From: an uncultured Chloroflexia bacterium
GTDB lineage: Bacteria; Chloroflexota; Limnocylindria; Limnocylindrales; CSP1-4
Length of the DNA stretch: 64,000 bases
NCBI GenBank assembly: GCA_963699965.1
Contig: CAVOVX010000007.1
Coordinates: 14 to 64,013, forward strand
Reading direction: 5' to 3'
The notes under the pieces were generated by a model that was given only the letters and a program-made list of their open reading frames with translations, was not told the origin of the DNA and searched no databases. Below, one piece after another: positions 19,953 through 42,203 of this stretch (position 1 is its first letter; each line of letters begins with the position of its first letter). The translations under genes and the position numbers were made by a program.

Positions 19953-20947
19953 CGCCGGCGTCCGGCGCGGCTGGCGGTCGATCGACTGCGACCGCTGCGC
20001 CGAGCAGCGTCGCCGCAGCAGCGGTTGGCCGGCAGCGCCGGCTGCTCCGGCTCGGCGGCCAGCGCGGCGTCATCGCCGGGATCGCGATCGATCACCGCGA
20101 CAGCCTGCGAGTGATGCTCGACCGACGGGGCTCGACCGGCCTCGGGACGGCCGAGCTCCGCTCGTTGAAGCTCGCCCTGACCCGAGCCCTGGCCCCGGCC
20201 GCGACCGCCGTCATGCTCGACGAAGAGCTCGGCGGGCTGGCGCTCGAGGCGGGCGCCGTGCCGGCCACGGTCGCGTTGATCATGCCGCTCGAAGCCCAGG
20301 GCTACGAGACGACCGGCGACGGGCCGGCGACCACGCTGCTGGACGACTTCTCGCCGGCCGCCGCGCTTCGCTACGGCGCGGACGCGTGCAAGTTGCTCCT
20401 CCCGTACCGGATCGACGATGCCGGCGCGGCCGCCGGGCAGGAGGCGCTGGTCAGCTCGACGGCCGCTGCCTGTCACGAGCACGGCCTGCCACTCGTCATC
20501 GAACCTGTCGCCTACCGCCGGACCGGTGAGACCGAGGCAGCCTACCGCCGCTCGTATCCGCAGCTCGTGGTCGGTGCCGTGGAGCGACTCCAGCCGCTGG
20601 GCGCCGATCTGCTCAAGCTGCCGTTTCCCGTGCTGGACCTCGAGACGGCCCCCGAGTCGGTCGCCGTCGATGCCTGCCACGCGCTCGGTGCTGCCTGCCG
20701 GGACACGCCCTGGGCCCTCCTCGGGGCCGGCGCTGACGCCGACACGTTCGTCGAGCAGATACGATTCGCCGGCAGCGCCGGGGCGTCCGGCTTCCTGGCT
20801 GGCCGCGGCATCTGGGGCGCGGCGCTGAACGCCGATCCGGCAGAGGCCGAGCGGATCGCGATCGAGACCTGCCGGCCCGCCCTCGAACGATGCCGCGCGG
20901 TCGCCGAACGGTTCGCGAGGCCCCTGGGCGGGGCCCCGTTCGGCTGA
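19949..20947 (+). CDS. Class I aldolase (LacD/YihT-like); candidate functional replacement for the DKGP aldolase IolJ
   Basis: The GTG overlaps the iolB stop (GTGA). IAGIAIDHRDSLRVML, GADACKLLLPYRIDD, LPLVIEPVAY, GADLLKLPFP, GASGFLAGRGIWG. The ORF track starts it at 19904. Confidence 0.65.
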   Translation: MTPASGAAGGRSTATAAPSSVAAAAVGRQRRLLRLGGQRGVIAGIAIDHRDSLRVMLDRRGSTGLGTAELRSLKLALTRALAPAATAVMLDEELGGLALEAGAVPATVALIMPLEAQGYETTGDGPATTLLDDFSPAAALRYGADACKLLLPYRIDDAGAAAGQEALVSSTAAACHEHGLPLVIEPVAYRRTGETEAAYRRSYPQLVVGAVERLQPLGADLLKLPFPVLDLETAPESVAVDACHALGAACRDTPWALLGAGADADTFVEQIRFAGSAGASGFLAGRGIWGAALNADPAEAERIAIETCRPALERCRAVAERFARPLGGAPFG

Positions 20948-20973
20948 CAACGGAACTCCGTCAGGAGCGGTCG

Positions 20974-21816
20974 ATGCAGCTCGTCTACAACTCCAACTCG
21001 ACGATGCACCTCCCCGTGCTCATGCAGATCCGGGTCGCCCGGGAGACCGGCTGGGACGGGGTCTTCCTCCGAGCGGAGCACATCCGTCGGTACCTCGCCC
21101 AGGGCTACGAGGCGGCGAGCCTGCGCACGGCCCTGGCCGGCCTGGGCCCGCTGAATCTCGGGGCACTGCCCGACGTCGAACGCTGGCGACCTGCCGAGCA
21201 TGCGGCCATGCTCCGCGAGGCGGCCGGCCTCACCGAGCTGGCCGCGGAGATCGGCGCGTCGTACGTCCAGCTGCTGACCGGACCCGTGGCGCCGGGCGGG
21301 GCGTACAGCGGACCCTCGAGCCTGTCCGACGCCGAGCTCATCAAGGTGACCGCCCGGGCGGTTCGCTCGGTGGCCGACCTGGGCGGCCCGGCCGGCCTGC
21401 GCTACTACCTCGAGCCGGTTGCCTGGACGCCGCTGTCGACCATCGCCCAGGCGGTCCGGGTGATCGACGCCGCTGAGCGCGACAACGTCGGGCTGGTGCT
21501 GGACTTCTGGCATCTCTGGCAGCGAGGCACCACCCCGGACGGCATCGCCCGTCTCGATCCCCGGATCATCTTTGGCGTCGACCTCGGGGACTCCCTGGGA
21601 CCGCCGGGCGCCGGCACGGCCGACCAGCGGAGCCGGTGCGTCTGGCCCGGCGATGGTGACATCCCGCTCCGCGAGTGGGTCGCCGCGGTCCGCTCGACCG
21701 GCTTCGACGGCTGGTGGGACAACGAGCTCTACAGCCCGCTCCACTGGGAGTCTGCTGACCCGTTTGCCGTCGGAGCGGGCTTGCTCGAGGTGCTCCGGAC
21801 GTTGCTGCGGGACTGA
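20974..21816 (+). CDS. Sugar phosphate isomerase/epimerase (xylose isomerase-like TIM barrel), intact
   Basis: MQLVYNSNSTM..., YVQLLTGP, RYYLEPVAWTP, GLVLDFWHLW, PGDGDIPLREWVAAVRSTGFDGWWDNELY. Confidence 0.8.
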   Translation: MQLVYNSNSTMHLPVLMQIRVARETGWDGVFLRAEHIRRYLAQGYEAASLRTALAGLGPLNLGALPDVERWRPAEHAAMLREAAGLTELAAEIGASYVQLLTGPVAPGGAYSGPSSLSDAELIKVTARAVRSVADLGGPAGLRYYLEPVAWTPLSTIAQAVRVIDAAERDNVGLVLDFWHLWQRGTTPDGIARLDPRIIFGVDLGDSLGPPGAGTADQRSRCVWPGDGDIPLREWVAAVRSTGFDGWWDNELYSPLHWESADPFAVGAGLLEVLRTLLRD

Positions 21817-29588: not shown

Positions 29589-29654
29589 CAGGCTCGCTTC
29601 GGGCGCTCGGAGCGAGCTCTGTATTGACGCGTCATGGGCCGGACGCTAGCATCG

Positions 29655-29668
29655 TACAAACGGTTGCA
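29655..29668. promoter_or_regulatory. LacI-type operator site D: TACAAACGGTTGCA, in the 95-bp divergent region
   Basis: 12 nt upstream of GTG 29681 / ATG 29684 (RBS AAGAGGG) and 66 nt upstream of the divergent large gene start (29588). TAGCAT at 29647-29652 is a possible -10. Confidence 0.6.
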
Positions 29669-29683
29669 CAAGAGGGTGCCGTG

Positions 29684-30928
29684 ATGCTCGCCTCCTGTCC
29701 GACGTCCCCGTCCGACGAGACGGGGACGCGGCGACGCGTCGGTCTCGATCAGCGCGATCCGGCTACCGCGGAGAACGGCTGGCGGTGGCCCTGGCCAGCC
29801 GGCCGACGGCGTGTGCGAGCGGCTCGACAGGGCTCGGACTTGGCTGAGTCGACACCCGCCATCGAGTTGCGCCACGTCACGAAACGCTACGGCGATACGG
29901 TGGCCCTCGACGACGTGTCGATGGACATCGAGCCCGGCGAGTTCTTCTGCCTCCTCGGGCCGTCCGGCTGCGGCAAGACGACGACCCTCAACCTCATCGG
30001 CGGGTTCATCCCGATGTCATCGGGCGAGCTGCGGATCGAGGGCCGGAAGGTCAACGACCTGCCGCCCCACAGGCGCAACGTCAACACCGTCTTCCAGAAC
30101 TACGCCCTGTTCCCCCACATGACGGTCGCCCAGAACGTCGCGTTCGGGTTGCGCATGGAGAAGCTGCCGACCGCGGAGATCGCCGTCGGACCGGCGAGTA
30201 CCTCGACCTCGTCGGGCTCGGCGGCTTCAACCGGCGGATGCCGTCCGAGATGTCCGGCGGCCAGCAGCAGCGCGTCGCGCTGGCCCGCGCCCTGGCCAAG
30301 CGTCCGGCCGTGCTGCTGCTCGACGAGCCGCTCGGTGCGCTCGACCTCAAGCTCCGCAAGCAGATGCAGACGGAGCTGTCGCGGATCCATCGCCAGGTGG
30401 GCACGACGTTCGTGTTCGTGACCCACGACCAGGAGGAGGCCCTCTCGATGGCGACCCGCATCGCGATCATGTCGGGCGGCAACGTCAGCCAGACCGGCAC
30501 CCCGCGCGAGGTCTACGATCATCCGGTCGACCGGTTCGTGGCCAGACTTCGTGGGCGAGACGAATTTCGTCTCGGGCGCGGTCACGACGGAGGACGGCCG
30601 GCGGATCTTCGCGATCCCGGGACGAGGCCGGGTCGGCGGCCCCGACCGGCTCGCCCGATGGGCCGGCGACGATCATGGTCCGGCCCGAGTACGTCGTGCT
30701 GCGACCGGCCGGCGGACCCGACCCGGAGCCGGGGATCCCCGGCCGGATCGCCAACGTCGCCTTCCTCGGCGACCACACTCGGATCACCCTGACGACGGAT
30801 GCCGGCGACATCGTTGCGGTCCGTCCCCACGGCACGAATGGTCGAATCGACTCACCTGGAGGAGGAGCATGGGGGAGGAGGTGTGCGTATGGTGGCCCGC
30901 GGACGACGCCGCATTGATCGACGACTGA
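29684..30928 (+). pseudogene. ABC transporter ATP-binding protein, PotA (spermidine/putrescine) type, at least 4 frame breaks. The true start could be TTG near 29841.
   Basis: [70 protein letters not shown] / [44 protein letters not shown] / [10 protein letters not shown] / [23 protein letters not shown]. Confidence 0.75.
29703..29728 (+). other. Perfect 10-bp stem / 6-nt loop hairpin CGTCCCCGTC-CGACGA-GACGGGGACG, in the transporter leader or in an N-terminal extension
   Basis: Read directly. It is followed by the self-complementary CGACGCGTCG (29733-29742). Confidence 0.3.
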
Positions 30929-30964
30929 CGCAGGTCCGACACGCGGACGATGGAAGGGACTGGA

Positions 30965-32160
30965 ATGACTGATCCGACGCGCGATATCAGCCGACGGGAC
31001 TTCCTCAGAGTGGTGGGAGCGGCCGGGGCAGTCGGTCGGGCTCGGCGGCATCGTCGCCGCCTGCTCGACGGCGGCCAGCAGCTCGGCACCTGCGGCCCCC
31101 AGCGCTGCGGCGGCTTCGGCCGCGGCGACCAGCGCCGCCGCCTCCCCGTCGGCGGCACGCAGCAGCGCCGACCGGCACGTTCAACTGGATGACCTGGGGC
31201 GACCACTGGTACCAGGCCCAGGTCGACGACATCGCCAGCCGCGAACAACATCAAGGTCAACAGCACGCTCTTCAGCGACAACATCGACGCGCTACACGAA
31301 GCTCAAGGAGGTCGGCGGGCAGCTCGACATGGTGTCGGGCGATGCGCTGTGGGTGCCCCACTACTTCGAGTCTGGGCTGATCGAGGCCTGGGACATCAAC
31401 TCGCTGGCGGTCGCCAAGCAGCTCTACTCGATCGCCCGGTCGTTCCCGATCTGGACGAAGCCGGAGGGCTACCTCGGCTACCCGTTCGGCTGGTCGCCCG
31501 TCCAGGTCTACTACGACCCGGCCAAGGTCTCGCCGGCGCCCGATTCCTGGGAGGTCCTCCTCGACCCGAAGTACAAGAAGCGGGTCGTCGTCGAGGACCA
31601 GCCGGTCGAGATCATGGCCTACATGGGCAAGCTCACCGGAGCGAAGAACGCCTACAGCATGACCCCCGAGGAGATCGCCAAGGCCAAGGAAGCCGCTCAA
31701 GCAGCTCAAGCCGAACGTCCTCACGCTGGCCAACCAGGCCACCGACACCATCGCCATGCTCAAGACCGGGGAGGCCTGGATCGCCACCGGCAACCTCGGC
31801 ACGGAGGCGCGGGTCAAGGACCAGGGCGGCCCGGACCTCAAGGTCTTCACCCCCAAGGAGGGGACCATCGGCTGGATGGACTCCGAGATGATCGTCAAGG
31901 GCGGCGCCAACAAGAAGCTCATCATGCCGTTCCTCGAGCTGGCCGAGCAGGCCGAGTACATCGCCGCCAACTTCCTGCTCAACGGCCGGCCGCTGTTCAA
32001 CGAGGCGGCCTACAAGATCCTGGTCAACCAGGGCCAGCAGGAACGAGCCGACCGGTTCCTGTACAACAAGCCCGAGACGGTCCAGACGATGGACCTCAAG
32101 GGCCCGGGCACCTCGACCCAGGCCGTCGATCGACGCCTTCAACGAGGTGTTCGGCGCTAG
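30965..32160 (+). pseudogene. ABC transporter substrate-binding lipoprotein, PotD/PotF (polyamine) type, with Tat signal; at least 4 frame breaks
   Basis: MTDPTRDISRRDFLRVVGAAGAVG / GGIVAACSTAAS (lipobox) / MTWGDHWYQAQVDDIA / YTKLKEVGGQLDMVSGDALWVPHYFESGLIEAWD...GYPFGWSPVQVYYD / IAMLKTGEAWIATGNLG..GTIGWMDSEMIVKGGANKK. Confidence 0.7.
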
Positions 32161-32186
32161 CCGATCGGCCGGGATCGGACTCAGGC

Positions 32187-33115
32187 ATGACGACCGAGAT
32201 CCGCCGGCGGGGCCGATGAGGCTCCGCTCGCCGGGATCGCGCGTCGGGGCTCGGCGCGCGACTGGGTCGGGCCGCTCCGTTCCTGCCGGGCCTCGCTCAT
32301 GCTGGTCGTCCTGTTCCTCGTCCCGATGGCGATCATGTTCGTCTTCAGCTTCTGGCGGACGAACGACGAACTTCGACGTCGTCCGCGACGTGGAACCTCG
32401 ACAACTACGTCAGGTTCTTCAACCAGCCCGACCTACGTCCGGACGTTCCTCAAGACGCTGGTCATGGGCGGCGCTGGTGACCGCTCGCCGGCCTGGCGCA
32501 TCGCGCTCGCCGTTCACCTACTTCCTCGTCCGCTACGTCAGCCGGCGCTGGCAGCGCGTCGTCCTGCTGGCGGTCATCGTCCCGTTCTGGACGAGCTACC
32601 TGCTGCGGGTCTACGCGTGGCAGGCGATCCTCGGTGAGACGGGCGCGCTCAACCAGTCCTCATGGGCCTCGGCCTCATCGAGGAGCCGTCGACGCTGTTC
32701 GTCTACAACGACGTCGGGGTCTTCATCGTGCTCGTGTACGTCTACTTCCCGTTCGCGGCGCTGGCCCTCTACGCGGCGCTCGAGAAGTTCGACTTCACCC
32801 AGCTCAACGCCGCCCAGGACCTGGGCGCGCGACCCGGACCAGGCGTTCCGGCACATCCTGCTGCCGCAGATCCGGACCGGGATCATCACCGCCTGCATCT
32901 TCGTGTTCATCCCGATCCTCGGCGAGTTCCTGACGCCCGACCCTGGTCGGCGGGGCCCAGGGCATCCTGATCGCGAACCTCATCGTCAACTTCTTCCGAC
33001 AGGCGCCAGATCCCGAGGGCGCCGCCCTGGCGATCGTCATCGCCGCGTTCGTCACGATCGTGCTCATCGTCTTCCGGCGATCCTGCGGGTCGAGGACGTG
33101 GTGGCCCGTGGCTAG
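32187..33115 (+). pseudogene. ABC transporter permease (PotB-like), at least 5 frame breaks
   Basis: MLVVLFLVPMAIMFVFSFW / NYVRFF / YVRTFLKTLVM / FLVRYVSRRWQRVVLLAVIVPFWTSYLLRVYAWQAILGETGALN / MGLGLIEEPSTLFVYNDVGVFIVLVYVYFPFAALALYAALEKFDFTQLNAAQDLGA / AFRHILLPQIRTGIITACIFVFIPILGEFLTP. Confidence 0.65.
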
Positions 33116-33138
33116 GCGGATCGAGCCCGCTCGAGACG

Positions 33139-33965
33139 ATGCCGGTCAGCCCGTACGCGCGGCTGACGCGCGGCCTGCTCGCGGTCCTGGCCGGCGCGAT
33201 CCTGGCGTTCCTCTACCTGCCGATCGCGTTCCTCATCCTGTTCTCGTTCGAGAAGGCGGACACGCCGGGCTTCCCGATCACCGGCCTGACCCTGCACTGG
33301 TACGAGGTGATGCTCGCCGACAGCGCCGATCCACTCGGCGCTGCTCAACTCGGTGCGCGGTGGCGATCGTCGTGGCGATCCTGGCGACGGTCATCGGGAC
33401 GATGGCCGCGTTCGCCGCTCGTGCGCGGCGGCATCCGCTTCGCCGGCACCGGCCCGGCTCGCTGTTCACCCTGCCGATCATGATCCCGGGCGTGCTGCAT
33501 CGGGATCGGCCTGCTGATCTTCTTCCGACGCGCGCTGGGGCTCCCGCTCGGGCTGCACACGGTCGTCGCCGGCCACCTCGTGTTCACGACGCCGTTCGTC
33601 GTGCTCATCGTGGCGGCCCGGCTGCAGGGCTTCGACCGACGCCTCGAGTGGGCGGCCGCCGACCTCGGGGCGAGACCGGGCCAGACCCTCCGCCACATCG
33701 TCCTGCCGCTCATCGCGCCGGCGATCATCGCCGGCGCGCTGCTCAGCGTGACCCTCTCGATCGACGAGTTCGTCATCACCTTCTTCACGATCGGGCCGCA
33801 GCTGACCCTGCCGCATCTACATCTACACGCAGATCAAGTTCGGGGTCACCCCCGAGGTCAACGCGGTGGCGACGGTCATCCTCGTCGCCACGCTCGGCGG
33901 CGTTCGCCATCGGCACGCTCCTGCTGAGCGGCGGGCGTCGCTTCCGCCGACAAGGGTCGGGATGA
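33139..33965 (+). pseudogene. ABC transporter permease (PotC-like), at least 4 frame breaks
   Basis: LAVLAGAILAFLYLPIAFLILFSFEKADTPGFPITGLTLHWYEVML / LNSVRVAIVVAILATVIGTMAAFA / FTLPIMIPGV / VVAGHLVFTTPFVVLIVAARLQGFDRRLEWAAADLGARPGQTLRHIVLPLIAPAIIAGALLSVTLSIDEFVITFFTIGP. Confidence 0.65.
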
Positions 33966-34017
33966 GTCCGATCGACGGGCCGGCTGCCGGTCGGCGCCGG
34001 CCGGATCGGTCCGGATC

Positions 34018-35052
34018 GTGACCGCGCCGACCGGAACGCCGCTAGTCCGTGGCGGGTTGCTCGGGCCGCGGCCGGATCCGAGCGAGCCGATCCGGATCGG
34101 TTTCCAGATCTGGGAACAGGCCGTCGCCTGGCCCGAACTGATGGCGGCCGGCGAGCGAATCGAGGCACTAGGGTTCGCCAGCCTGTTCGCCAACGATCAC
34201 TTCATGCCGATCCTGGGCGATGCTGACGGCCCGGTCGTCGGATCCGCCGGCTCCGTCTTCGAGGGCTGGCTGACGCTCGCGGCCTGGGCCGCTCGCACGA
34301 CCCGGGTGCCGCTCGGGATCCTGGTCTAGCTCGGTCAGCTACCGCAACGTCGGGCTGACGGTCAAGATGGCGACTACGCTCGATCACGCCAGCAACGGCC
34401 GGGCGATGCTCGGCCTGGGCGCCGGCTGGCACGCGCCCGAGCACTGGGCGTTCGGCTACGACCTGCTCTCGTTGGGCGATCGGGTGAGCCGCTTCGACGA
34501 GGCCAGCCGGGTCGCCCGGGGCCTGCTCGATGGCGAGTCGGTGACGTTCGATGGGCGCTGGGTTCGCGCTGCCGGCATGCGCAACGACCCCCGCCGGTCC
34601 AGGCGCGGATGCCGTTGCTGATCGGCGGCGAGCGGCGAGACGACGGACGCTGCGGATCGTCGCCCGCGACGCCGACATCTGGAACGGCGAGGGCGACCCG
34701 GCGACGTACGCTCACAAGTCCGCGCGTGCTGGACCGGCACTGCGCCGAGCTCGGTCGCGACCCGCTCGCGATCCGGCGGACCGTCGGCGTGCCACCGGTC
34801 TGCATCCGGGCGACGCGCGAGGCGGCCGTGGACGCGCTGGCGGCGACCTTCGAGCGCAACGGGAGCAGTCCCGCCGCCGCGCGCGCCTGGGCGGCGAGCT
34901 CCCCGCTCGCCGACTCGCGGGACGCCGTGGTGCGGCTGTTCCGCGCCTGGCACGCGGCCGGTGCCGAGGAGGCGATCATCGACCAGCCGTCGCCGCTCGA
35001 CGACGAGACGATCGAGCTCCTGGCCGGCTCCGTTCGAGAGCGTCTCGGGTGA
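34018..35052 (+). pseudogene. LLM-class F420-dependent oxidoreductase, at least 3 frame breaks
   Basis: IRIGFQIWEQAVAWPELMAAGERIEALGFASLFANDHFMP..EGWLTLAAWAARTTRVPLGILV / VSYRNVGLTVKMATTLDHASNGRAMLGLGAGWHAPEHWAFGY / MPLLIGG / ..LDRHCAELGRDPLAIRRTVG. Confidence 0.65.
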
Positions 35053-35081
35053 TGGCCGTGTCGAACTGGAGGTCCTGACCG

Positions 35082-36085
35082 ATGCGCGCCGCAGTCTACG
35101 AGGGCGAGGGCCGGCTCGTCGTGCGCGACGTGCCCGATCCGACGCCGGGTCCCGACGAGGTGCTGATCGAGGTCGAGGCGTGCGGCGTGTGCGGCTCGGA
35201 CGTCCAGATCATCAACGTCCCGCCGGGCCACCCATCGACCCCGCCCGTCATCATCGGCCACGAGTTCGTCGGCTGGGTCCGGGCGGCCGGATCGGCCGTC
35301 CGTGACGCCCCGATCGGGGCGCGGGTCGTCGTCGATCCCGATCCGAAGTGCGGCGCCTGCGAACCGTGCCGCGCGGGTCGACCGGCGAACTGCACGAACA
35401 TCGTGGCCCTCGGCGTCTATCGCGACGGGGCGCTGGCCGCGCTACGTTACCGCCCCGGCCAACAGCGTGTACGCCATCTCGCCCGAGGTTCCCACCGAGC
35501 TGGCGGCCCTGGTCGAGCCGCTGTCGTGCGTCGTCAACGGGACGAACCGGGCGGCGATCCGGCCGGGCGAATCGGCGGTCGTGTTCGGAGCGGGAGCCAT
35601 CGGCTGCCTGTTCAGTGCGGTGTTCCGCGCGGCCGGCGCGGGGCGGATCGTCGCCGTCGAGCCGAGCGCCCAGCGCGCCCCGGTCGCCCTGGCCGTCGGG
35701 GCCGACTACGTCCTGACGCCCGACGAGTGGACGGCCCGCCGCGCCGAGCTCCTGCCGAGCGGAGCGGACGTCGTGGTCGACGCGGTCGGCAGCGTCCTGC
35801 CCGACGCGATCTCGGCCGCCGGCATGGGCGCCCGGGTCGTGGTCTTCGGGATGAACGGGACGGCCCGCCCGCAGGTCCACCAGGTCGAGATCGTCGAGAA
35901 GGGTCTGACGATCCTCGGCTCGTACATCTCGAACTTCACGTTCCCCGCCGCGATCCGACTCGTCGAGAGCGGCAAGCTCGAACCTCGCTCCGCTGATCAG
36001 CGCGACGATCCCGCTCGAGGACACCCTCGCCGGGATCGCCCGGATCCGATCGGGCGAGGCAGTCAAGATCGTCATCAAGCCGTAG
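35082..36085 (+). pseudogene. Zinc-dependent alcohol/polyol dehydrogenase (MDR family), 2 frame breaks
   Basis: GGAGG RBS. MRAAVYEGEGRLVVRDVPDPTPGPDEVLIEVEACGVCGSDV..IIGHEFVG..DPDPKCGACEPCRAGRPANC / EPLSCVVNG..AVVFGAGAIGCL..VVVDAVG / LAPLISATIPLEDTLAGIARIRSGEAVKIVIKP stop at 36083. Confidence 0.7.
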
Positions 36086-36107
36086 TCGCGTCCCTGGAGG
36101 AACCCCG

Positions 36108-37033
36108 ATGCCCCCGCCCTGCGGGTCGCCAGCGCCCCGGTCTCATTCGGTGTCGACGAGATCATGTTGGACGACGCCTGGATGCCGGCCCCGGACGACA
36201 TGCTCGACTGGATGGTCGACATCGGGTTCGAGGGCACCGAGCTCGGCACTCCCGGTTACCTCGGCGACGCGAGGCAGGTCAACGAGCGCCTGTCGTCGCG
36301 CGGCCTGGAGTTCGTCGGTTCGTTCATGCCCCAGCACTTCAGCCGCGCGGAGAAGGCCGACGAGGATCGCGCCTGGCTGCGCGACAACCTCCGCCTGATG
36401 AAGGAGGGCTCGCCGGCCGGCTCGCGGCCGTTCGCGATCCTGTCCGACCAGTTCGACGAACCCGACCGCCGGGCCTTCTCGGGGCGGATCCCGGACCATC
36501 CCGAGACGTGGCTGTCCGCGACTCGGTTCGACACGCTCATCGACAATCTCCACCGGGCGGCCGAGATCTGCCGGGCCGAGGGGCTCGAGCCGGTTCTCCA
36601 TCCCCACGCCGGGACCTACGTTGAGACGGCGGACGAGATCGCCCGGGTCATGGACCGGATCGACCCGTCGCTCATCGGCCTCTGCCTCGACACCGGCCAC
36701 TTCCGGTTCGGTGGCGCCGATCCGGCCACCTCCGTCCATGATTACCACGAGCTCGTTCGGCACGTCCACATCAAGGACTGTCGGACCTCGGTCATGGATG
36801 ACGTCAAGCGAGAGGGCAAGGGTCTCGACGAGGCGCTCCGCCGAGGCGTGTTCTGTCCCTTGGGCGAGGGCGACGCCGGGATTGACGCCGTCATCGAGGC
36901 GCTGCGAGCGCACGACTACACGGGCTGGCTCGTGATCGAGCAGGACCAGGCCCTTCGATCGTCGGATACGCCCCAATCGGTCATCGCCGGGCAGCGAGGC
37001 AATCGCGAGTACCTGCGCCGGCTCGGGATCTGA
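36108..37033 (+). CDS. Xylose isomerase-like TIM-barrel protein, IolE (inosose dehydratase)-like; one frame break directly after the ATG
   Basis: GGAGGAA RBS then ATG 36108, then LRVASAPVSFGVDEIMLDDAWMP...GFEGTELGTPGY...LHPHAGTYVET..GLCLDTGHFRFGG..HVHIKDC..GWLVIEQD. Confidence 0.7.
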
Positions 37034-37097: not shown

Positions 37098-38477
37098 TCA
37101 GAGCACGTCCCGATACTCCTGGAGGAACGACGCCGTGGCCTCGACCAACTGGTCGACGTCGTCCTCGGTATGGGCACCGGTCAGGAACCCCCGGATCATG
37201 TAGTGCGGGTGGACGTAGATCCCCCGCTCGAGGAGCCAGTCCCGGTAGCCGCGCTGGACGGGGTGGTTCTTGTCCATCGCGAACCGGGCGAAGTCCCGGA
37301 AGCGTCGGATCGGCTCGTCGGTGAAGTAGATCGTCCAGACCCCGGCGATCGCGCGGACCTGTGCCCGCGCGCCGGTCTCATCGATGGCGGCCTGGATGCC
37401 CGAGGTCAGCCGATCACCGAGCCGGGCCAGGTGCTCGTGGATCGTTCCCTCGAGCACGATCCGCGTCACTTCGAGCGCGACCGCACAGTTCAGCACCTGG
37501 CCGGCGAACGTCCCGGCGAACAGGACGTCGCCCTTGGGGCCGAGGTGGTCCATGACGTCGGCTCGGCCGGCGAGCACCGAGATCGGGAAGCCGTTGCCGA
37601 TGGCCTTGCCCATCGTCGTGAGATCGGGCGTCACCCCATACCGGCCCTGAGCTCCGCCGGGACCGTGGCGGAAGCCGGTGATGACCTCATCGAAGATGAG
37701 GAGCGAGCCGGACGCCGTGCACGCCTCGCGCAGCGTCTCGAGGAAGCCAGGCTCGGGCATGACCGCACCGGCGTTGTGGAAGACGGGCTCCAGGATGACC
37801 GCCGCGATCGTCTCGCCGTCCTCGGCGAGAAGCTCCCGGACACCGGCCGAATCGTTGTACTCGCGGACCTCGACGAGGTCCCGGATGGCAGCCGGGATCC
37901 CGGCCGACGCGGCGATCGGCGTGGGTACCCCGCCGCCCTCGTCCGTCGCGAAGTGATGGCTCCACGCCACGTAGTCGTGCCAGCCGTGGTAGTTGCCCTC
38001 GAATTTCAGGATCCGTTCCCGCCCGGTGAAGCCGCGGGCCAGGCGGATCGCGTGGTAGGTCGCCTCGGTGCCCGTGCAGCTGAACACCACCCGCTCCGCG
38101 GACGGGATCATCGCGATGAGCCGCTCGGCAAGCTCCACCTCGAGCGGATTGGCCGTCGAGAACGACACGCCGTGCTCGTCCATCGCCCGGCGAACGGCGG
38201 CATTGATCCGCGCGTCGTTGTGCCCCAGCAGGACCGCCCCAAACGACGAGTGGAAGTCGATGAACTCGTTGCCGTCGACATCCCAGATCCGCGACCCCTG
38301 GGCACGGGTCATGAACAGGGGATAGGGGCTCGCGCTCCGTCCTTCGCCCTGGACGCCGCCAGGTGACACGGCAGTCGCCCGGGCAAAGAGCTTCTCGGAC
38401 TCCGTCGTCGTGACGGGCCAGCCCGACGCCGCCGGTCGGGTGGCCGCTCCACTTCGGGTCGGGTCGACGGTCGTCAC
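37098..38477 (-). CDS. Class III (aspartate aminotransferase superfamily, GSA-aminomutase-like) PLP aminotransferase, intact
   Basis: 459-aa ORF with GSRIWDVDGNEFIDFHSSFGAVLLGH, VVFSCTGTEATYHAIRLAR, ILEPVFHNAG, LLIFDEVITGFRHG and DLTTMGKAIGNGFP (PLP lysine). Confidence 0.85.
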   Translation of the reverse strand: MTTVDPTRSGAATRPAASGWPVTTTESEKLFARATAVSPGGVQGEGRSASPYPLFMTRAQGSRIWDVDGNEFIDFHSSFGAVLLGHNDARINAAVRRAMDEHGVSFSTANPLEVELAERLIAMIPSAERVVFSCTGTEATYHAIRLARGFTGRERILKFEGNYHGWHDYVAWSHHFATDEGGGVPTPIAASAGIPAAIRDLVEVREYNDSAGVRELLAEDGETIAAVILEPVFHNAGAVMPEPGFLETLREACTASGSLLIFDEVITGFRHGPGGAQGRYGVTPDLTTMGKAIGNGFPISVLAGRADVMDHLGPKGDVLFAGTFAGQVLNCAVALEVTRIVLEGTIHEHLARLGDRLTSGIQAAIDETGARAQVRAIAGVWTIYFTDEPIRRFRDFARFAMDKNHPVQRGYRDWLLERGIYVHPHYMIRGFLTGAHTEDDVDQLVEATASFLQEYRDVL

Positions 38478-38497
38478 GGTGCCTCCAATCCTCGATG

Positions 38498-39688
38498 TCA
38501 GAGCCCGGCGGGCAGCACGACTGCCGTGCGGGTGCCGCTCGCTGCCGCCTCGTACAGCGCGTCGAGGACGGCGCTGTCACGAACGCCATCCGAGAAGTCG
38601 GCGGAGCCCGGCCGGCCGCCCGCGATGGCGTCGACGAACTCGGCCCACATTGCGCACTCCTGGCCGAGCCAGCCGATCGACGTTCCATCGGTGCCGGCGA
38701 TGAGCAGCTCAGGCGCGCCCGGGTGGGCGGGGTTCACGAGGACCCGCCGGAAGCCGAACGTGAACGGGTCGCCGGGCAGGCAGACCCGGAACTCATCCGG
38801 TCGCTCGAGGTCCCAGTCCGCGGATCCGCGCGAGCCGAACACCTCGAGCTGGAGCGAGATCCGCTTGCCGATCGCGACGCGGCTCGCCTCGAGCACCCCA
38901 TAGGCGCCGCTCTCGAAGGTCACGAGCGCCGCCGCCGCGTCCTCGACGTCGACCGGTCCGGTCTCGCCCCGGCCCGATCGGGCGGCGTCGCCGCCGCGGT
39001 TGCCGACCGCATCGGCGCCGGGGAGCGGTCGCTCGGCGATGAACGTCGCCGCCAATGCCTGCACGGTCACGATCTCCCCGACCAGGAATCGGGCGCAATC
39101 GACGAGGTGATACCCGGTGTCGATCGCGATCCCGCCACCGGCGAACCGCTTCTGGAATCGCCACAGGAGCGGAACGTCTGGATCGGCGGCGTAGTCGAGC
39201 ATGAAGGCTGCCCGGATGCTGCGGATCGTTCCGAGCTCGCCCTCGCGGATGAGCCGCTCGATGGCGCGGACGGCGGGCGACCAGCGATAGCCCGCCCCGA
39301 GGCCGTGGAACACCCGCGCCGCTCGACAGGCACGAAGCATCAGGGCGGCGTCCTCGGCCGACTCGGCCATCGGCTTCTCACACACGATGTGCTTCCCGGC
39401 GGCGGCGGCGGCGAGCACGATGTCGCGGTTCAGGGCGGGCGGCAGGCAGACGACGACGAGATCGATATCGGCCGCGGCGATGACCGCATCGGCGTCGTCG
39501 GCGACCCGCTCGTAGCCGAAACGATCGGCCAGGCTGGTCGCGAGGCCCCGGTTCACGTCGGCCACCGCGACGAGGCGCGGTCGACGTGGGAGCTGCCGGT
39601 AGAGGGCCGCGAGGTTTGCCAGGGCCGCGCTGTGCGCACCGGCCATCGTGCCGGCCCCGATCATCCCGATCCGCAGCTCGTCGGTCAT
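38498..39688 (-). CDS. Gfo/Idh/MocA family oxidoreductase, intact
   Basis: 396-aa ORF with LRIGMIGAGTMAGAHSAAL, DLVVVCLPPALNRDIVLAAAAAGKHIVCEKPMA and GGIAIDTGYHLVDCARFLVG. Confidence 0.85.
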   Translation of the reverse strand: MTDELRIGMIGAGTMAGAHSAALANLAALYRQLPRRPRLVAVADVNRGLATSLADRFGYERVADDADAVIAAADIDLVVVCLPPALNRDIVLAAAAAGKHIVCEKPMAESAEDAALMLRACRAARVFHGLGAGYRWSPAVRAIERLIREGELGTIRSIRAAFMLDYAADPDVPLLWRFQKRFAGGGIAIDTGYHLVDCARFLVGEIVTVQALAATFIAERPLPGADAVGNRGGDAARSGRGETGPVDVEDAAAALVTFESGAYGVLEASRVAIGKRISLQLEVFGSRGSADWDLERPDEFRVCLPGDPFTFGFRRVLVNPAHPGAPELLIAGTDGTSIGWLGQECAMWAEFVDAIAGGRPGSADFSDGVRDSAVLDALYEAAASGTRTAVVLPAGL

Positions 39689-39806
39689 CGAAGCTCCAGA
39701 TCCGTGCGTCGGCCAGGTTGACCGGGCCAGAGCGTATCAAATGCGGGAACGATTGCACACGCCCCGGCTGGACGCTGGCCGGAGGCAGGTCGCCGAGAGG
39801 CGACCG

Positions 39807-40733
39807 TCAGGCGATCAGGGGCCGGATGAAGGCGGCGGCCTCCTCGACGCCTTCCACCGCGGGCTGATACGGATCCTCGTTCTCGATCGAGAGCGGGCCG
39901 TCGTAGCCCACCGACCGAAGAGCGGCGATGAACGAAGACCACCACGTTCGGTCATGGATGCGACCGACGGTTCGGAAGACCCACGCCCGATCGCGAGCGT
40001 CGCCAAACGCCGTCGTATCGAGCACGCCCGCCAGCGCCAGGCGATCGGGCTGCAGGCCGGTGTCCTTGAGGTGGACGTGCTGGATGGCCGTCCCGAGGGC
40101 CGCGATCGCGGCCAGCGGGTCCATCTGCTGCCAGAACAGGTGCGACGGGTCCATGTTCGCGCCGATGACCGGGCCGACGGCCTCGCGCATCCGACGCAGG
40201 GTCGGGACGTTGAACACGAGGTGGAGGGGATGGAGCTCGAAGGCGATCTGCTTGACCCCGCACGCGGTGGCGTGGGCCGCCATGTCCTGCCAGAAGGGGA
40301 TCGCCGCGTCCCACTGGCGGGCCTGGAGGGCGACGGCGTCGGCGGGCCAGGGGTAGAACACCCAGTCGACCGTGGTGGCACCCGGTCCGTCACCGGGCGT
40401 GCCGGACATCGAGACGACCGTTTCGACGCCGAGCTCACCGGCTAGCCGGATCGTGTCCCGGATGATCCGCTCCTGGGCGGGCCCGTGGGCCGGATGGAGC
40501 GGCCAGGCGGAGCAGTTGAGGGCCGCGATGCGCAGCCCGCGGGTCGCGAATGCACTGGCGAACGCCGTCCGCTTGCCCCGGTCGCCCAGGAGCACTCCGA
40601 GCTCGAGGTGGGGCGCCGAGGACTGGCCACCGCCGGCGATCTCGATCGAGCCGCAGCCGATCCGCGCCGCGAGGTCGAGGGCGGCCTCGAACGACAGCTC
40701 GGCCACCGAGTCCGTGTACAGGCACAGGTCCAA
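39807..40733 (-). CDS. Sugar phosphate isomerase/epimerase (xylose isomerase-like TIM barrel), intact
   Basis: 308-aa ORF with GCGSIEIAGGG, IAFELHPLHLV, GANMDPSHLFWQ, HVHLKD and GYDGPLSIENED. Confidence 0.85.
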   Translation of the reverse strand: MDLCLYTDSVAELSFEAALDLAARIGCGSIEIAGGGQSSAPHLELGVLLGDRGKRTAFASAFATRGLRIAALNCSAWPLHPAHGPAQERIIRDTIRLAGELGVETVVSMSGTPGDGPGATTVDWVFYPWPADAVALQARQWDAAIPFWQDMAAHATACGVKQIAFELHPLHLVFNVPTLRRMREAVGPVIGANMDPSHLFWQQMDPLAAIAALGTAIQHVHLKDTGLQPDRLALAGVLDTTAFGDARDRAWVFRTVGRIHDRTWWSSFIAALRSVGYDGPLSIENEDPYQPAVEGVEEAAAFIRPLIA

Positions 40734-40804
40734 GGCATGACTCCGTCTACGGGGCGCTGGCCGACCCGACGCGCGGCCCGTTCAGCCGGGGCAGCGCTCG
40801 GGCA

Positions 40805-41905
40805 TCAGGACCGGAGGTCCGGGTTGGGCAGGACGGCGTCGCCGACCTGGTGGAGGAGCTCGTGGTACGAGGCGATGAAGGCCCGGAGCGTGCGGACGGT
40901 CGGCGGGAATCCGTCGAACTCGTCGACAGTCAGTCCATCCGGTTCATAGGCCCGCACGAAGTCGGGAAAGTGGCGGGCCAGCTCGCCGACGATCGCCGGG
41001 TCGACCGGTTCGTCCATGCGCGGGCGAACCTCCACGTCGGAGGCGTTGAAGCGGCGTTGCCAGACGGACGGCAGGGTGACGATGACGTCGCCGCCGATGA
41101 GCTGGCTCCAGTGGTAGTGGTGGCGGATCGCAGCGCCGAGCAGCCGCGCCCGGAGGCCGCGCGTCCGGAAGATTTCGTACGCCCGCTTGAACACCGCGAC
41201 CCCCGACCAGGGCAGGGCGACCGGATCGACGACGATCCCGTCGCGCTCGGTCTGGACCCGGAGCCAGTCCTCGATCCGGCCCATCATGATCGTGATGACC
41301 GGACCCATCCGGTCCACCGGCAGGCCCTCGTTCTGGCGCCGCTGGAGGCCACGCTCGACGGCCTCGGCCGCCGCGACGGCCTGGCTGACGCTGAAGCTCA
41401 CGGTGCAGTTGACGCTCACCCCGCGATAGGTCGCCTCTTCCATGACCGCGATCCCGACCGAGGTCGCCGGGAACTTCACCACGATGTTCGGGGCGAGCCC
41501 GTCGAACCGGACGCCCTGGGCGAGCATCTGGTCGGGCGTTCGCCAGAAGGTCGGGTTCGTCTGGACCGACAATCGACCCTGGCGCCCCTCGAACCGATCG
41601 AATGCAGGGAGCAGGAGCGGAGCGGCCCGGACCGACATCGCCTCCACGATCGCCCAGGCCAGATCGACTTCGGTCCACCCGGGATGCTCCGTCGCCAGGC
41701 CCGCCGTCACGGCCCGCCAGTACGCCGGATCCGCCTTCCAGACGTCGTGGACGATCGTCGGATTGGCCGTCGCGCCGACCGCACCGTTCGCGATCGCGTA
41801 CTCCAGCTCGTCGACGGCGCACGAATCGTTCCAGATGTCCGTTGCGGTCTCGGCCACCGTTCGGGCTAACGGGCTGAGCGCGGTCGTGTCCACCTGGCTA
41901 CCCAT
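40805..41905 (-). CDS. tal: Transaldolase family protein, intact
   Basis: 366-aa ORF with DIWNDSC, GATANPTIV, GRLSVQTNP, NIVVKFPATSVGI (Schiff-base lysine context) and GVSVNCTVSFS. Confidence 0.8.
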   Translation of the reverse strand: MGSQVDTTALSPLARTVAETATDIWNDSCAVDELEYAIANGAVGATANPTIVHDVWKADPAYWRAVTAGLATEHPGWTEVDLAWAIVEAMSVRAAPLLLPAFDRFEGRQGRLSVQTNPTFWRTPDQMLAQGVRFDGLAPNIVVKFPATSVGIAVMEEATYRGVSVNCTVSFSVSQAVAAAEAVERGLQRRQNEGLPVDRMGPVITIMMGRIEDWLRVQTERDGIVVDPVALPWSGVAVFKRAYEIFRTRGLRARLLGAAIRHHYHWSQLIGGDVIVTLPSVWQRRFNASDVEVRPRMDEPVDPAIVGELARHFPDFVRAYEPDGLTVDEFDGFPPTVRTLRAFIASYHELLHQVGDAVLPNPDLRS

Positions 41906-42203
41906 CGACCGACACGAGAATCGGCCCGGCGTCGGTCTCCATCTCGATGTGCTGACGAACGCCTGCAGCCGCGAGCCAGTCGCGGAACCGTTCCGCCCCC
42001 GGCGTGCCCTGGTCGGCCAATTCCCATTCGGCGACGGCGATGGTCGTTCGCGGTCCCGCGCGCATCAGCCGATAGCGGACGAACCCGGGTTGCGCTCGGA
42101 ACACCGTGCTGCCGTCCCGGGCGATGAGCTCCACGAGGTCACGGCCCGCCTCGCTGTCCAGGTCGACATCCCAGGTCGCACGCGTCGTGCGCAGGTACCT
42201 CAT
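41898..42203 (-). CDS. Small ABM/Dabb-fold (antibiotic biosynthesis monooxygenase-like) protein; first gene of the minus-strand operon
   Basis: 101-aa ORF whose end overlaps the transaldolase start by 8 nt. GFVRYRLMRAGPRTTIAVAEWELADQ is reminiscent of the ABM fold; the assignment is weak. Confidence 0.45.
   Translation of the reverse strand: MRYLRTTRATWDVDLDSEAGRDLVELIARDGSTVFRAQPGFVRYRLMRAGPRTTIAVAEWELADQGTPGAERFRDWLAAAGVRQHIEMETDAGPILVSVDG

Follow-up and report, generated by a model that had tools for sequence, protein, structure and literature searches.

A candidate cyclitol uptake-and-entry operon with a PotD-fold importer in a soil Limnocylindrales bacterium

Introduction

The stretch of DNA analysed here, called the window, is 64,000 nucleotides long (contig CAVOVX010000007.1, positions 14 to 64,013) and comes from a soil bacterium of the order Limnocylindrales (Chloroflexota). 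Downstream of one promoter and operator it carries seven co-directional genes that encode an ATP-binding cassette (ABC) importer (PotA-like ATPase, binding protein, PotB-like and PotC-like permeases), a luciferase-like (LLM) oxidoreductase, a Zn-dependent dehydrogenase and an IolE-like protein. With somewhat better than even confidence, these genes are read as the uptake-and-entry operon of a LacI-controlled catabolic regulon for cyclitols (inositol-type compounds), with a ligand leaning to the amino-bearing side and with reading-frame breaks that stem from assembly errors.

Known systems for inositol uptake belong to the major facilitator superfamily (MFS) or are of the RbsB type. Canonical myo-inositol catabolism, as in iolABCDEFGHIJ of Bacillus subtilis and in the actinobacterial iol clusters, combines MFS (IolT/IolF) or RbsB-type (IatABC/IbpA) uptake with IolG, IolE, IolD, IolB, IolC and an aldolase, and is under repressor control. 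The island in the window has these enzymes and this mode of control, but its transporter is from another family and its IolE lies in the transporter operon. It also has extra genes, for the LLM oxidoreductase, the Zn-dehydrogenase, DegT-family and class-III aminotransferases, a P450 and large metallohydrolases.

In the rhizobial moc system, uptake relies on MocB, a binding protein of the RbsB type, and regulation on MocR, of the GntR/MocR type. The mocCABR(DEF) locus of Sinorhizobium meliloti L5-30 is responsible for the catabolism of the rhizopine scyllo-inosamine and joins a regulator and binding-protein uptake to a GFO/IDH-family dehydrogenase (MocA) and an IolE-like TIM-barrel protein (MocC) (PMC6668481). 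The present operon resembles it in logic, and both rely on the general iol pathway of the host; it differs in its PotD-type importer, in its LacI regulator and, in Limnocylindrales, in its dehydrogenase, which is Zn-dependent. A literature search found no description of a PotD-type transporter in an inositol regulon, of iolE or iolG together with putrescine transporters, or of Limnocylindria in connection with inositol.

Gene order and control of the operon

The genome is 3.56 Mb long in 15 contigs, with 70% G+C and an estimated completeness of 70%. A third-position G+C frame plot gives a plus-strand coding signal from 29.8 to 37.0 kb with repeated changes of frame, and every gene of the operon is frame-broken as written. 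Gene content and order were established through intact orthologues of the same genus, and annotation was taken from the copy in relative G004 (Pfam, NCBIfam). The block is intact in same-genus relatives G003, G004, G005 and G010, and G005 is the closest of the intact relatives (86% identity in pairwise alignment). Among the relatives found with the binding protein are MFD genomes, which we take to be long-read metagenome bins.

The operon is preceded by promoter D, a sigma-70-like promoter (TTGACG-17 nt-TAGCAT, 29624 to 29652, plus strand) that is conserved in all same-genus relatives and is also found in relative L035. Directly downstream of its -10 box lies operator D (TACAAACGGTTGCA, 29655 to 29668), a predicted pseudo-palindromic LacI-type site of 14 bp, and the whole block stands downstream of it, as the initial annotation had stated. 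Promoter, operator and ribosome-binding site (RBS) are almost invariant upstream of the orthologous operon among all same-genus relatives. A genome-wide count of the operator consensus YRCAAWCGGTTGCR gives exactly four sites in 3.56 Mb, all of them within the island in this window, which precede a P450 gene (10101), iolD (14880), the LacI gene (21864) and the importer operon (29655); all four sit behind a TTGACG...TAnnnT promoter. The predicted operator is thus located at a promoter, is conserved and has one copy ahead of lacI itself, which is the pattern of a LacI-repressed operon. Its confinement to four sites in the island leaves the importer as the regulon's only transporter.

The junctions between the genes are tight. 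The potA stop codon (30926-30928) is followed by the ATG of the binding-protein gene at 30965, which ends at about 32160 and is followed by the potB ATG at 32187, and the potB stop codon (33113-33115) abuts or overlaps potC. The next gaps measure 52 nt between the potC stop (33963-33965) and the GTG of the LLM gene (34018), 29 nt between the LLM stop (35050-35052) and the ATG of the dehydrogenase gene (35082), and 22 nt between the dehydrogenase stop (36083-36085) and the ATG of the IolE-like gene (36108), in agreement with the 22-52 nt first reported. The IolE-like gene stops at 37031-37033. Promoter D is the sole promoter-like site across 29.3-38.7 kb, as it is in relative L035, and neither the window nor L035 has a plus-strand terminator-like site between the operon genes; the single such site (29605-29617) overlaps the promoter region upstream of potA. 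Because there is one promoter-like site, no intervening plus-strand terminator-like site and a series of tight, conserved junctions, it is plausible that the genes from 29.65 to 37.03 kb form one operator-controlled transcription unit, and the co-transcription proposed earlier is plausible on the same grounds.

A conservation scan with one genome per species gave 80 binding-protein loci, and the counts below refer to the 74 that have downstream sequence. The gene arrangement is well beyond chance, with the same order in 61 of these 74 species-level loci of Limnocylindrales: potC is followed directly by the dehydrogenase gene in 36, and the LLM gene lies between the two in 25.

The region from 29671 to 29838 (plus strand) contains the RBS (AGAGGG) and a leader, which is either a poorly conserved N-terminal extension of PotA from the ATG at 29684 or a short upstream open reading frame (ORF). 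As the window is written, this ATG shares the frame of potA. In many relatives (loci L002-L004, L018, L019, L022, L024, L027, L042 and L094), a short ORF starts 5-8 nt past the RBS and stops before potA. It has 21 codons (e.g. MAVARPEVLCAARARAGSTEA) or 15 codons (e.g. MSGQGPDRPCLELLA), and its position and length are better conserved than its sequence. The short ORF after operator D is a possible leader peptide.

The importer and the pocket of its binding protein

The PotA-like ATPase gene (29684 to 30928, plus strand, with an alternative TTG start at 29839) runs through three frames in the window. Its tblastn pieces (29828-30184 in frame 2, 30184-30576 in frame 1 and 30636-30845 in frame 3) are 83-96% identical to the G005 orthologue. 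The orthologue has ABC_tran and TOBE_2 domains; its 367.2 bits clear the 355.6-bit cut-off of the PotA subfamily model TIGR01187, while the PotA equivalog NF006987 is not reached (385 against 482). The permease genes, PotB-like (32187 to 33115) and PotC-like (33100 to 33965, an approximate start that overlaps the end of potB), are both on the plus strand and encode BPD_transp_1 proteins, whose top families are PotB (181 bits, cut-off 348) and PotC (205 bits, cut-off 326), respectively. The PotB-like gene is the most heavily broken of the operon, with 17 frameshifting insertions against 7 deletions. Together with the fold of the binding protein, the subfamily match of the ATPase supports an importer of the polyamine/opine/phosphonate type and bears out the initial assignment to the polyamine-type ABC importers.

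The binding protein (30965 to 32160, plus strand, frame-broken) is a predicted lipoprotein exported by the twin-arginine translocation (Tat) pathway. Its orthologue matches SBP_bac_6 and TAT_signal. The window contains both features noticed at first reading, the Tat motif SRRDFLR within MTDPTRDISRRDFLR (from 30965) and the lipobox GIVAAC (31050), each in a different frame, and both signals occur in all members of the binding-protein family. Against G005, identity is 98% for the piece 31293-31676 and 93% for the piece 31696-32127.

An AlphaFold2 model of the binding protein (predicted local distance difference test, pLDDT, 84.2) was compared with known structures. The top 25 Foldseek matches in the PDB are PotD/PotF and close homologues (E 1e-21 to 1e-24), and the named PotD/PotF entries of Escherichia coli and Vibrio align with template modelling (TM) scores of 0.80-0.89; the best PotD and PotF matches reach 0.85-0.89 at 19-22% identity. 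The protein is far from these families in sequence: it scores 47.6-66.5 bits against the PotD equivalog (cut-off 582) and 28-36 bits against that of PotF (cut-off 636). The PotD/PotF type first assigned is therefore correct as a fold and does not extend to close relationship. The model also matches MotA, which binds mannopine and glucopine in Agrobacterium (6tg3), and AfuA, which binds sugar phosphates (4r73), with Foldseek probability 1.0 and TM scores of 0.68-0.77; this likeness is one of fold, at 16-18% identity. PotD-like proteins can thus bind polyol-bearing ligands. The argument that a PotD-type protein implies an amine does not stand on its own, since the fold also accepts sugar phosphates and mannopine-type opines.

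Two alignments, one of HMMER to E. coli PotD and one made with MAFFT, were used to map the pocket residues of the binding protein. Five of the 13 PotD contacts are retained: W34, E171 (E or D), W255 (W or F), D257, and E36 as D. Eight are altered: Y37 to H, S83 to D, Y85 to L, D168 to Q, W229 to N, Y293 to R, Q327 to K, and T35 to G, S or N. The comparison with PotD that had been proposed as a check thus shows that most polyamine contacts are lost. The aromatic box that holds the polyamine chain is gone, polar residues have been gained and four acidic positions are kept. Compared with E. coli PotABCD/PotFGHI (Transporter Classification, TC, 3.A.1.11), the system has the same four components, with a TOBE ATPase, permeases whose best matches are PotB and PotC, a PotD/PotF fold and five shared contacts, and differs in the low identity of its binding protein, in the polar or charged residues at the altered contacts, in its Tat lipoprotein, in its LacI-type control and in its place in a cyclitol operon.

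A true putrescine or spermidine importer that merely lies beside cyclitol genes would agree with the PotA subfamily match of the ATPase, with the label of spermidine/putrescine-binding that source databases give to the family, and with the retained PotD positions E171, W255 and D257. It is very unlikely, in line with the initial annotation, which favoured uptake of an amino-polyol or aminocyclitol. The binding protein is far under the PotD and PotF cut-offs, W229, Y85, Y293 and D168 are among the eight contacts altered, the repressor is of the LacI sugar type with an operator confined to the iol island, and the importer is linked to a dehydrogenase and an IolE-type protein across three phyla.

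Enzymes of the operon and the surrounding island

The IolE-like gene (36108 to 37033, plus strand) has one frame break just after its ATG, caused by a 4-nt deletion at 36113. The product is a TIM-barrel protein whose orthologue matches AP_endonuc_2 and the IolE model TIGR04379 with 155-161 bits (cut-off 290, not reached), and which matches the IolE structures 3cny and 9zmu. It is the sole good TIGR04379 match in the genome, with 160.9 bits against 25 bits for the runner-up, and the IolE of a full iol operon in Solirubrobacteraceae scores alike (149 bits). Being the only good IolE homologue of the genome, it is probably the inosose dehydratase of the pathway itself rather than a side-branch enzyme. 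Another AP_endonuc_2 gene (20737-21816) stands in the iolD operon where iolE is expected. It was rejected as the IolE of the pathway, with no match to the IolE model and only a faint match to QuiC, and its product may be an isomerase of the IolI/IolH type.

The Zn-dependent medium-chain dehydrogenase of the polyol/threonine-dehydrogenase type (35082 to 36085, plus strand) has two frame switches in the window (pieces 35064-35465, 35428-35982 and 35981-36082). Its orthologue has ADH_N and ADH_zinc_N domains, its best PDB match is 4ej6, and it reaches the cut-off neither of IolM (NF041097, 224 bits against 450) nor of Tdh (205 against 380). IolM of Thermotoga maritima, a scyllo-inosose 3-dehydrogenase, is its best named family, and both are medium-chain Zn-dehydrogenases in an inositol locus; the present enzyme differs in scoring under half the IolM cut-off, with Tdh nearly equal, and in having no IolN or IolO partners found. 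The oxidative IolM-IolN-IolO pathway of the Thermotoga type was considered and rejected, as IolN had no match and IolO matched another gene with 31 bits.

The LLM oxidoreductase gene (34018 to 35052, plus strand, frame-broken) encodes a Bac_luciferase protein (123 bits for the orthologue) of F420-associated subfamilies. Its top matches are all F420 subfamilies, as first proposed, but it stays below every subfamily cut-off tested (TIGR03560, 186.7 bits against 231.4; TIGR03856, 165 against 244). The LLM gene lies between potC and the dehydrogenase gene in only 25 of the 74 loci and not at that position elsewhere, which marks it, by its distribution, as a clade-specific insertion. Among the enzymes of F420 synthesis, CofD is present in this genome (contig C4, 244628-247044; 317 bits) and CofE in all 19 genomes of the genus. 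Of the Fo synthase genes, cofG was found in none of these 19 and cofH in one, with a partial match under the cut-off. To make F420, the genus may need Fo from outside.

The surrounding island encodes IolD, an IolC-IolB fusion, a DeoC-type aldolase, LacI and a transketolase, together with an IolG that scores 338 bits against a cut-off of 355. It also encodes a DegT-family aminotransferase, located inside the core iolD operon, and two large metallohydrolases of the CehA/McbA type.

We infer the order of the enzymes, the ligand and co-transcription from these assignments. The gene at about 22.1-23.2 kb would supply the LacI-family repressor, which would bind the 14-bp operator directly beside the -10 box, and its release would allow one transcript from 29.65 to 37.03 kb. 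This transcript would provide the ABC importer of the polyamine/opine/phosphonate type, with its PotA-like ATPase, lipid-anchored Tat-exported binding protein and two permeases, and also the LLM oxidoreductase, the Zn-dehydrogenase and the only IolE-type dehydratase of the genome. The Zn-dehydrogenase would oxidise the imported cyclitol to an inosose, possibly with help from the LLM enzyme, and the IolE-type enzyme would dehydrate the inosose. The product would then pass to IolD, IolB, IolC and IolJ, which are encoded by the operator-B operon.

Origin of the frame breaks

The initial annotation had found every gene of the block frame-broken and its integrity unproven. The breaks are real features of the sequence as written, while the doubt about integrity is settled towards errors of the long-read consensus assembly, which we accept with high confidence. 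Compared with three relatives over 29.8-37.1 kb, the window has 51 unique insertion or deletion (indel) events, among them about 33 single-base insertions and 7 single-base deletions; among the unique events, insertions outnumber deletions by about 5 to 1. Overall the block has about 38 net +1 insertions. In the pairwise alignment with G005, an insertion excess is seen in each gene from potA through the dehydrogenase gene. A 1-nt loss also destroys the stop codon of the binding-protein gene (32156-32160), where relatives read GCC TAG and the window reads GCT AGC. Over 35.98-37.05 kb there are no indels unique against the three relatives except the 4-nt deletion at 36113.

At the protein level, in-frame pieces of the ATPase and the binding protein share 89-98% identity with G005, and third codon positions account for 65-76% of the nucleotide differences. 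Genome-wide, just 60% of bases lie in long clean ORFs, and the distribution is patchy, with bins of 0.0-0.1 adjoining bins of 1.0. Broken patches alternate with perfect stretches throughout the genome, one of them being 25.1-36.1 kb of the window. The long-read genus genome L005 is also broken across the operon and has 90 gap openings against the window, compared with 58 for the intact L006. Homopolymer-type nanopore errors were rejected as the cause, as only 12 of 64 single-base insertions are beside an identical base.

A pseudogene cluster that is genuinely decaying in this strain would likewise leave each gene broken as written. It would also fit errors that are not linked to homopolymers and neighbouring genes (36.1-42 kb) that are almost intact. 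We consider it improbable, because real bacterial decay is biased to deletions and would relax the codon pattern: here unique insertions predominate, and the codon-position bias with the high in-frame protein identity indicates purifying selection up to the present. Similar broken patches over about 40% of the genome, beside perfect stretches, and the likewise broken L005 also speak against decay.

Distribution across lineages and the ligand

In the scan, an IolE-like or related TIM-barrel gene lies at most three genes away in 53 of the 74 loci, a large hydrolase is present in 58 and a DegT-family gene is found within 10 kb in 39. By gene neighbourhood, importer, dehydrogenase and TIM-barrel protein are a stable core within Limnocylindrales and across phyla. 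The operon of Solirubrobacteraceae runs LacI-potABCD-GFO dehydrogenase-IolA-DUF2090-IolE-IolC-IolD-IolB; no aminotransferase was found near it and no orthologous DegT gene in the genome. Dormibacterota and the cultured Mycolicibacterium litorale have LacI-potABCD-GFO-IolE-like, which is exactly the content of the moc type, and the version in Gaiellaceae adds a DegT gene.

The M. litorale module (CP019882.1, B1R94_27025) is located at 5.64 Mb. At 2.0 Mb, 3.6 Mb away from it, the same genome has a complete canonical iol cluster that is GntR-controlled and has an RbsB-type ABC transporter adjacent to it. The PotD-type module in this species is therefore an add-on. No other sequence found exceeds 66% identity to its binding protein, and the sequence comparison suggests that the module was acquired horizontally.

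From Chloroflexota to Mycolicibacterium, the pocket residues of the binding protein are almost invariant, and the ligand class is probably common to all lineages with this importer family. Several observations lean towards an amine. The pocket retains E171, W255 and D257 as well as W34 and E36 (as D). Aminotransferases are linked to the locus, with DegT genes close by in 39 of the 74 loci and also in Gaiellaceae. Plain inositol would give no purpose to the DegT gene within the core iolD operon. In M. litorale the module is an add-on to a canonical iol cluster and, to our knowledge, every characterised transporter of family TC 3.A.1.11 imports an amine-bearing compound. Our preference is for a cyclitol that is not plain myo-inositol and that most likely carries an amino group, as inosamines do, possibly with neutral inositols alongside; that the ligand is an amine-bearing or otherwise non-canonical cyclitol is given a little less than an even chance.

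Alternatively, the operon could encode an ordinary inositol importer, in which a PotD-fold binding protein has become adapted to myo-, scyllo- or chiro-inositol as neutral ligands, the dehydrogenase and the LLM enzyme widen the range of isomers and no amine is involved. This reading is favoured by the importer being the sole transporter of the regulon, presumably co-transcribed with the only IolE. Inositols are abundant in soil, and AfuA shows that the same fold accepts sugar phosphates. Against it stand the DegT aminotransferase of the core iolD operon, linked in many lineages and superfluous for the breakdown of plain inositol, the fact that M. litorale has the module besides a cluster with its own RbsB-type transporter, the amine-bearing substrates of the characterised members of the transporter family, and the four acidic pocket positions kept or gained. 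Plain inositols are on this evidence unlikely, with an appreciable probability nonetheless, and the remainder falls on other ligands.

Several points weigh against the uptake-and-entry operon with an amine-leaning ligand. The complete iol operon of Solirubrobacteraceae, which has no aminotransferase, relies on a single transporter, a family member that shares these pocket residues, and this argues for plain inositol. The replacement of the aromatic polyamine-box residues by Arg, Lys, Asn, Gln and His gives the usual make-up of a neutral polyol site, and the equivalents of Y293 and Q327 were placed by sequence alignment only. The IolE-like protein, the LLM oxidoreductase and the Zn-dehydrogenase are all under the cut-offs of curated families, and their reactions are putative. 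With CofG and CofH lacking in the genus, use of F420 by the LLM enzyme would need an external Fo precursor. The insertion errors have an unusual, non-homopolymer profile.

Beyond this locus, the PotD-fold importer family could be the missing uptake route for amine-bearing cyclitols across phyla and, with the linked aminotransferases, the Zn-dehydrogenase and the IolE-type enzyme, could form an undescribed aminocyclitol pathway. This wider proposal is put forward tentatively, at clearly less than an even chance. Candidate substrates are free inosamines, aminoglycoside cores of the deoxystreptamine or streptamine type and glucosaminyl-inositol set free from mycothiol, and the lineages concerned would be Limnocylindria, Solirubrobacterales, Gaiellales, Dormibacterota and one Mycolicibacterium.

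The convergent neighbouring genes

Outside the operon, the gene at 37101 to 38477 (minus strand) is intact and encodes a class-III aminotransferase, which resembles glutamate-1-semialdehyde (GSA) aminomutases; such a gene lies convergent to the operon in 25 of the 74 loci. Its identity as HemL was rejected, with 387 bits against 527 for the hemL equivalog, although it is above the broad subfamily model. The gene belongs to a convergent, intact four-gene module on the minus strand (37101-42064), together with genes for a GFO-family dehydrogenase, an AP_endonuc_2 protein and a transaldolase-like protein. The top match of the GFO dehydrogenase is levoglucosan dehydrogenase (302 bits against 650), and the module recalls oxidative pathways that cleave 3-keto-sugars or glycosides.

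Implications

A PotD-fold importer in iol regulons across three phyla would be a new, third type of cyclitol transporter, and its recognition would correct thousands of annotations as spermidine/putrescine-binding protein in soil metagenomes. The presence of the module in cultured M. litorale makes the question of the ligand directly testable. If the ligand is an amino-cyclitol, the operon would belong to the first pathway known, apart from the moc system of rhizobia, for the breakdown of inosamines or aminoglycoside cores, and would give the Limnocylindria, a dominant uncultured soil group, a niche in the scavenging of both nitrogen and carbon.

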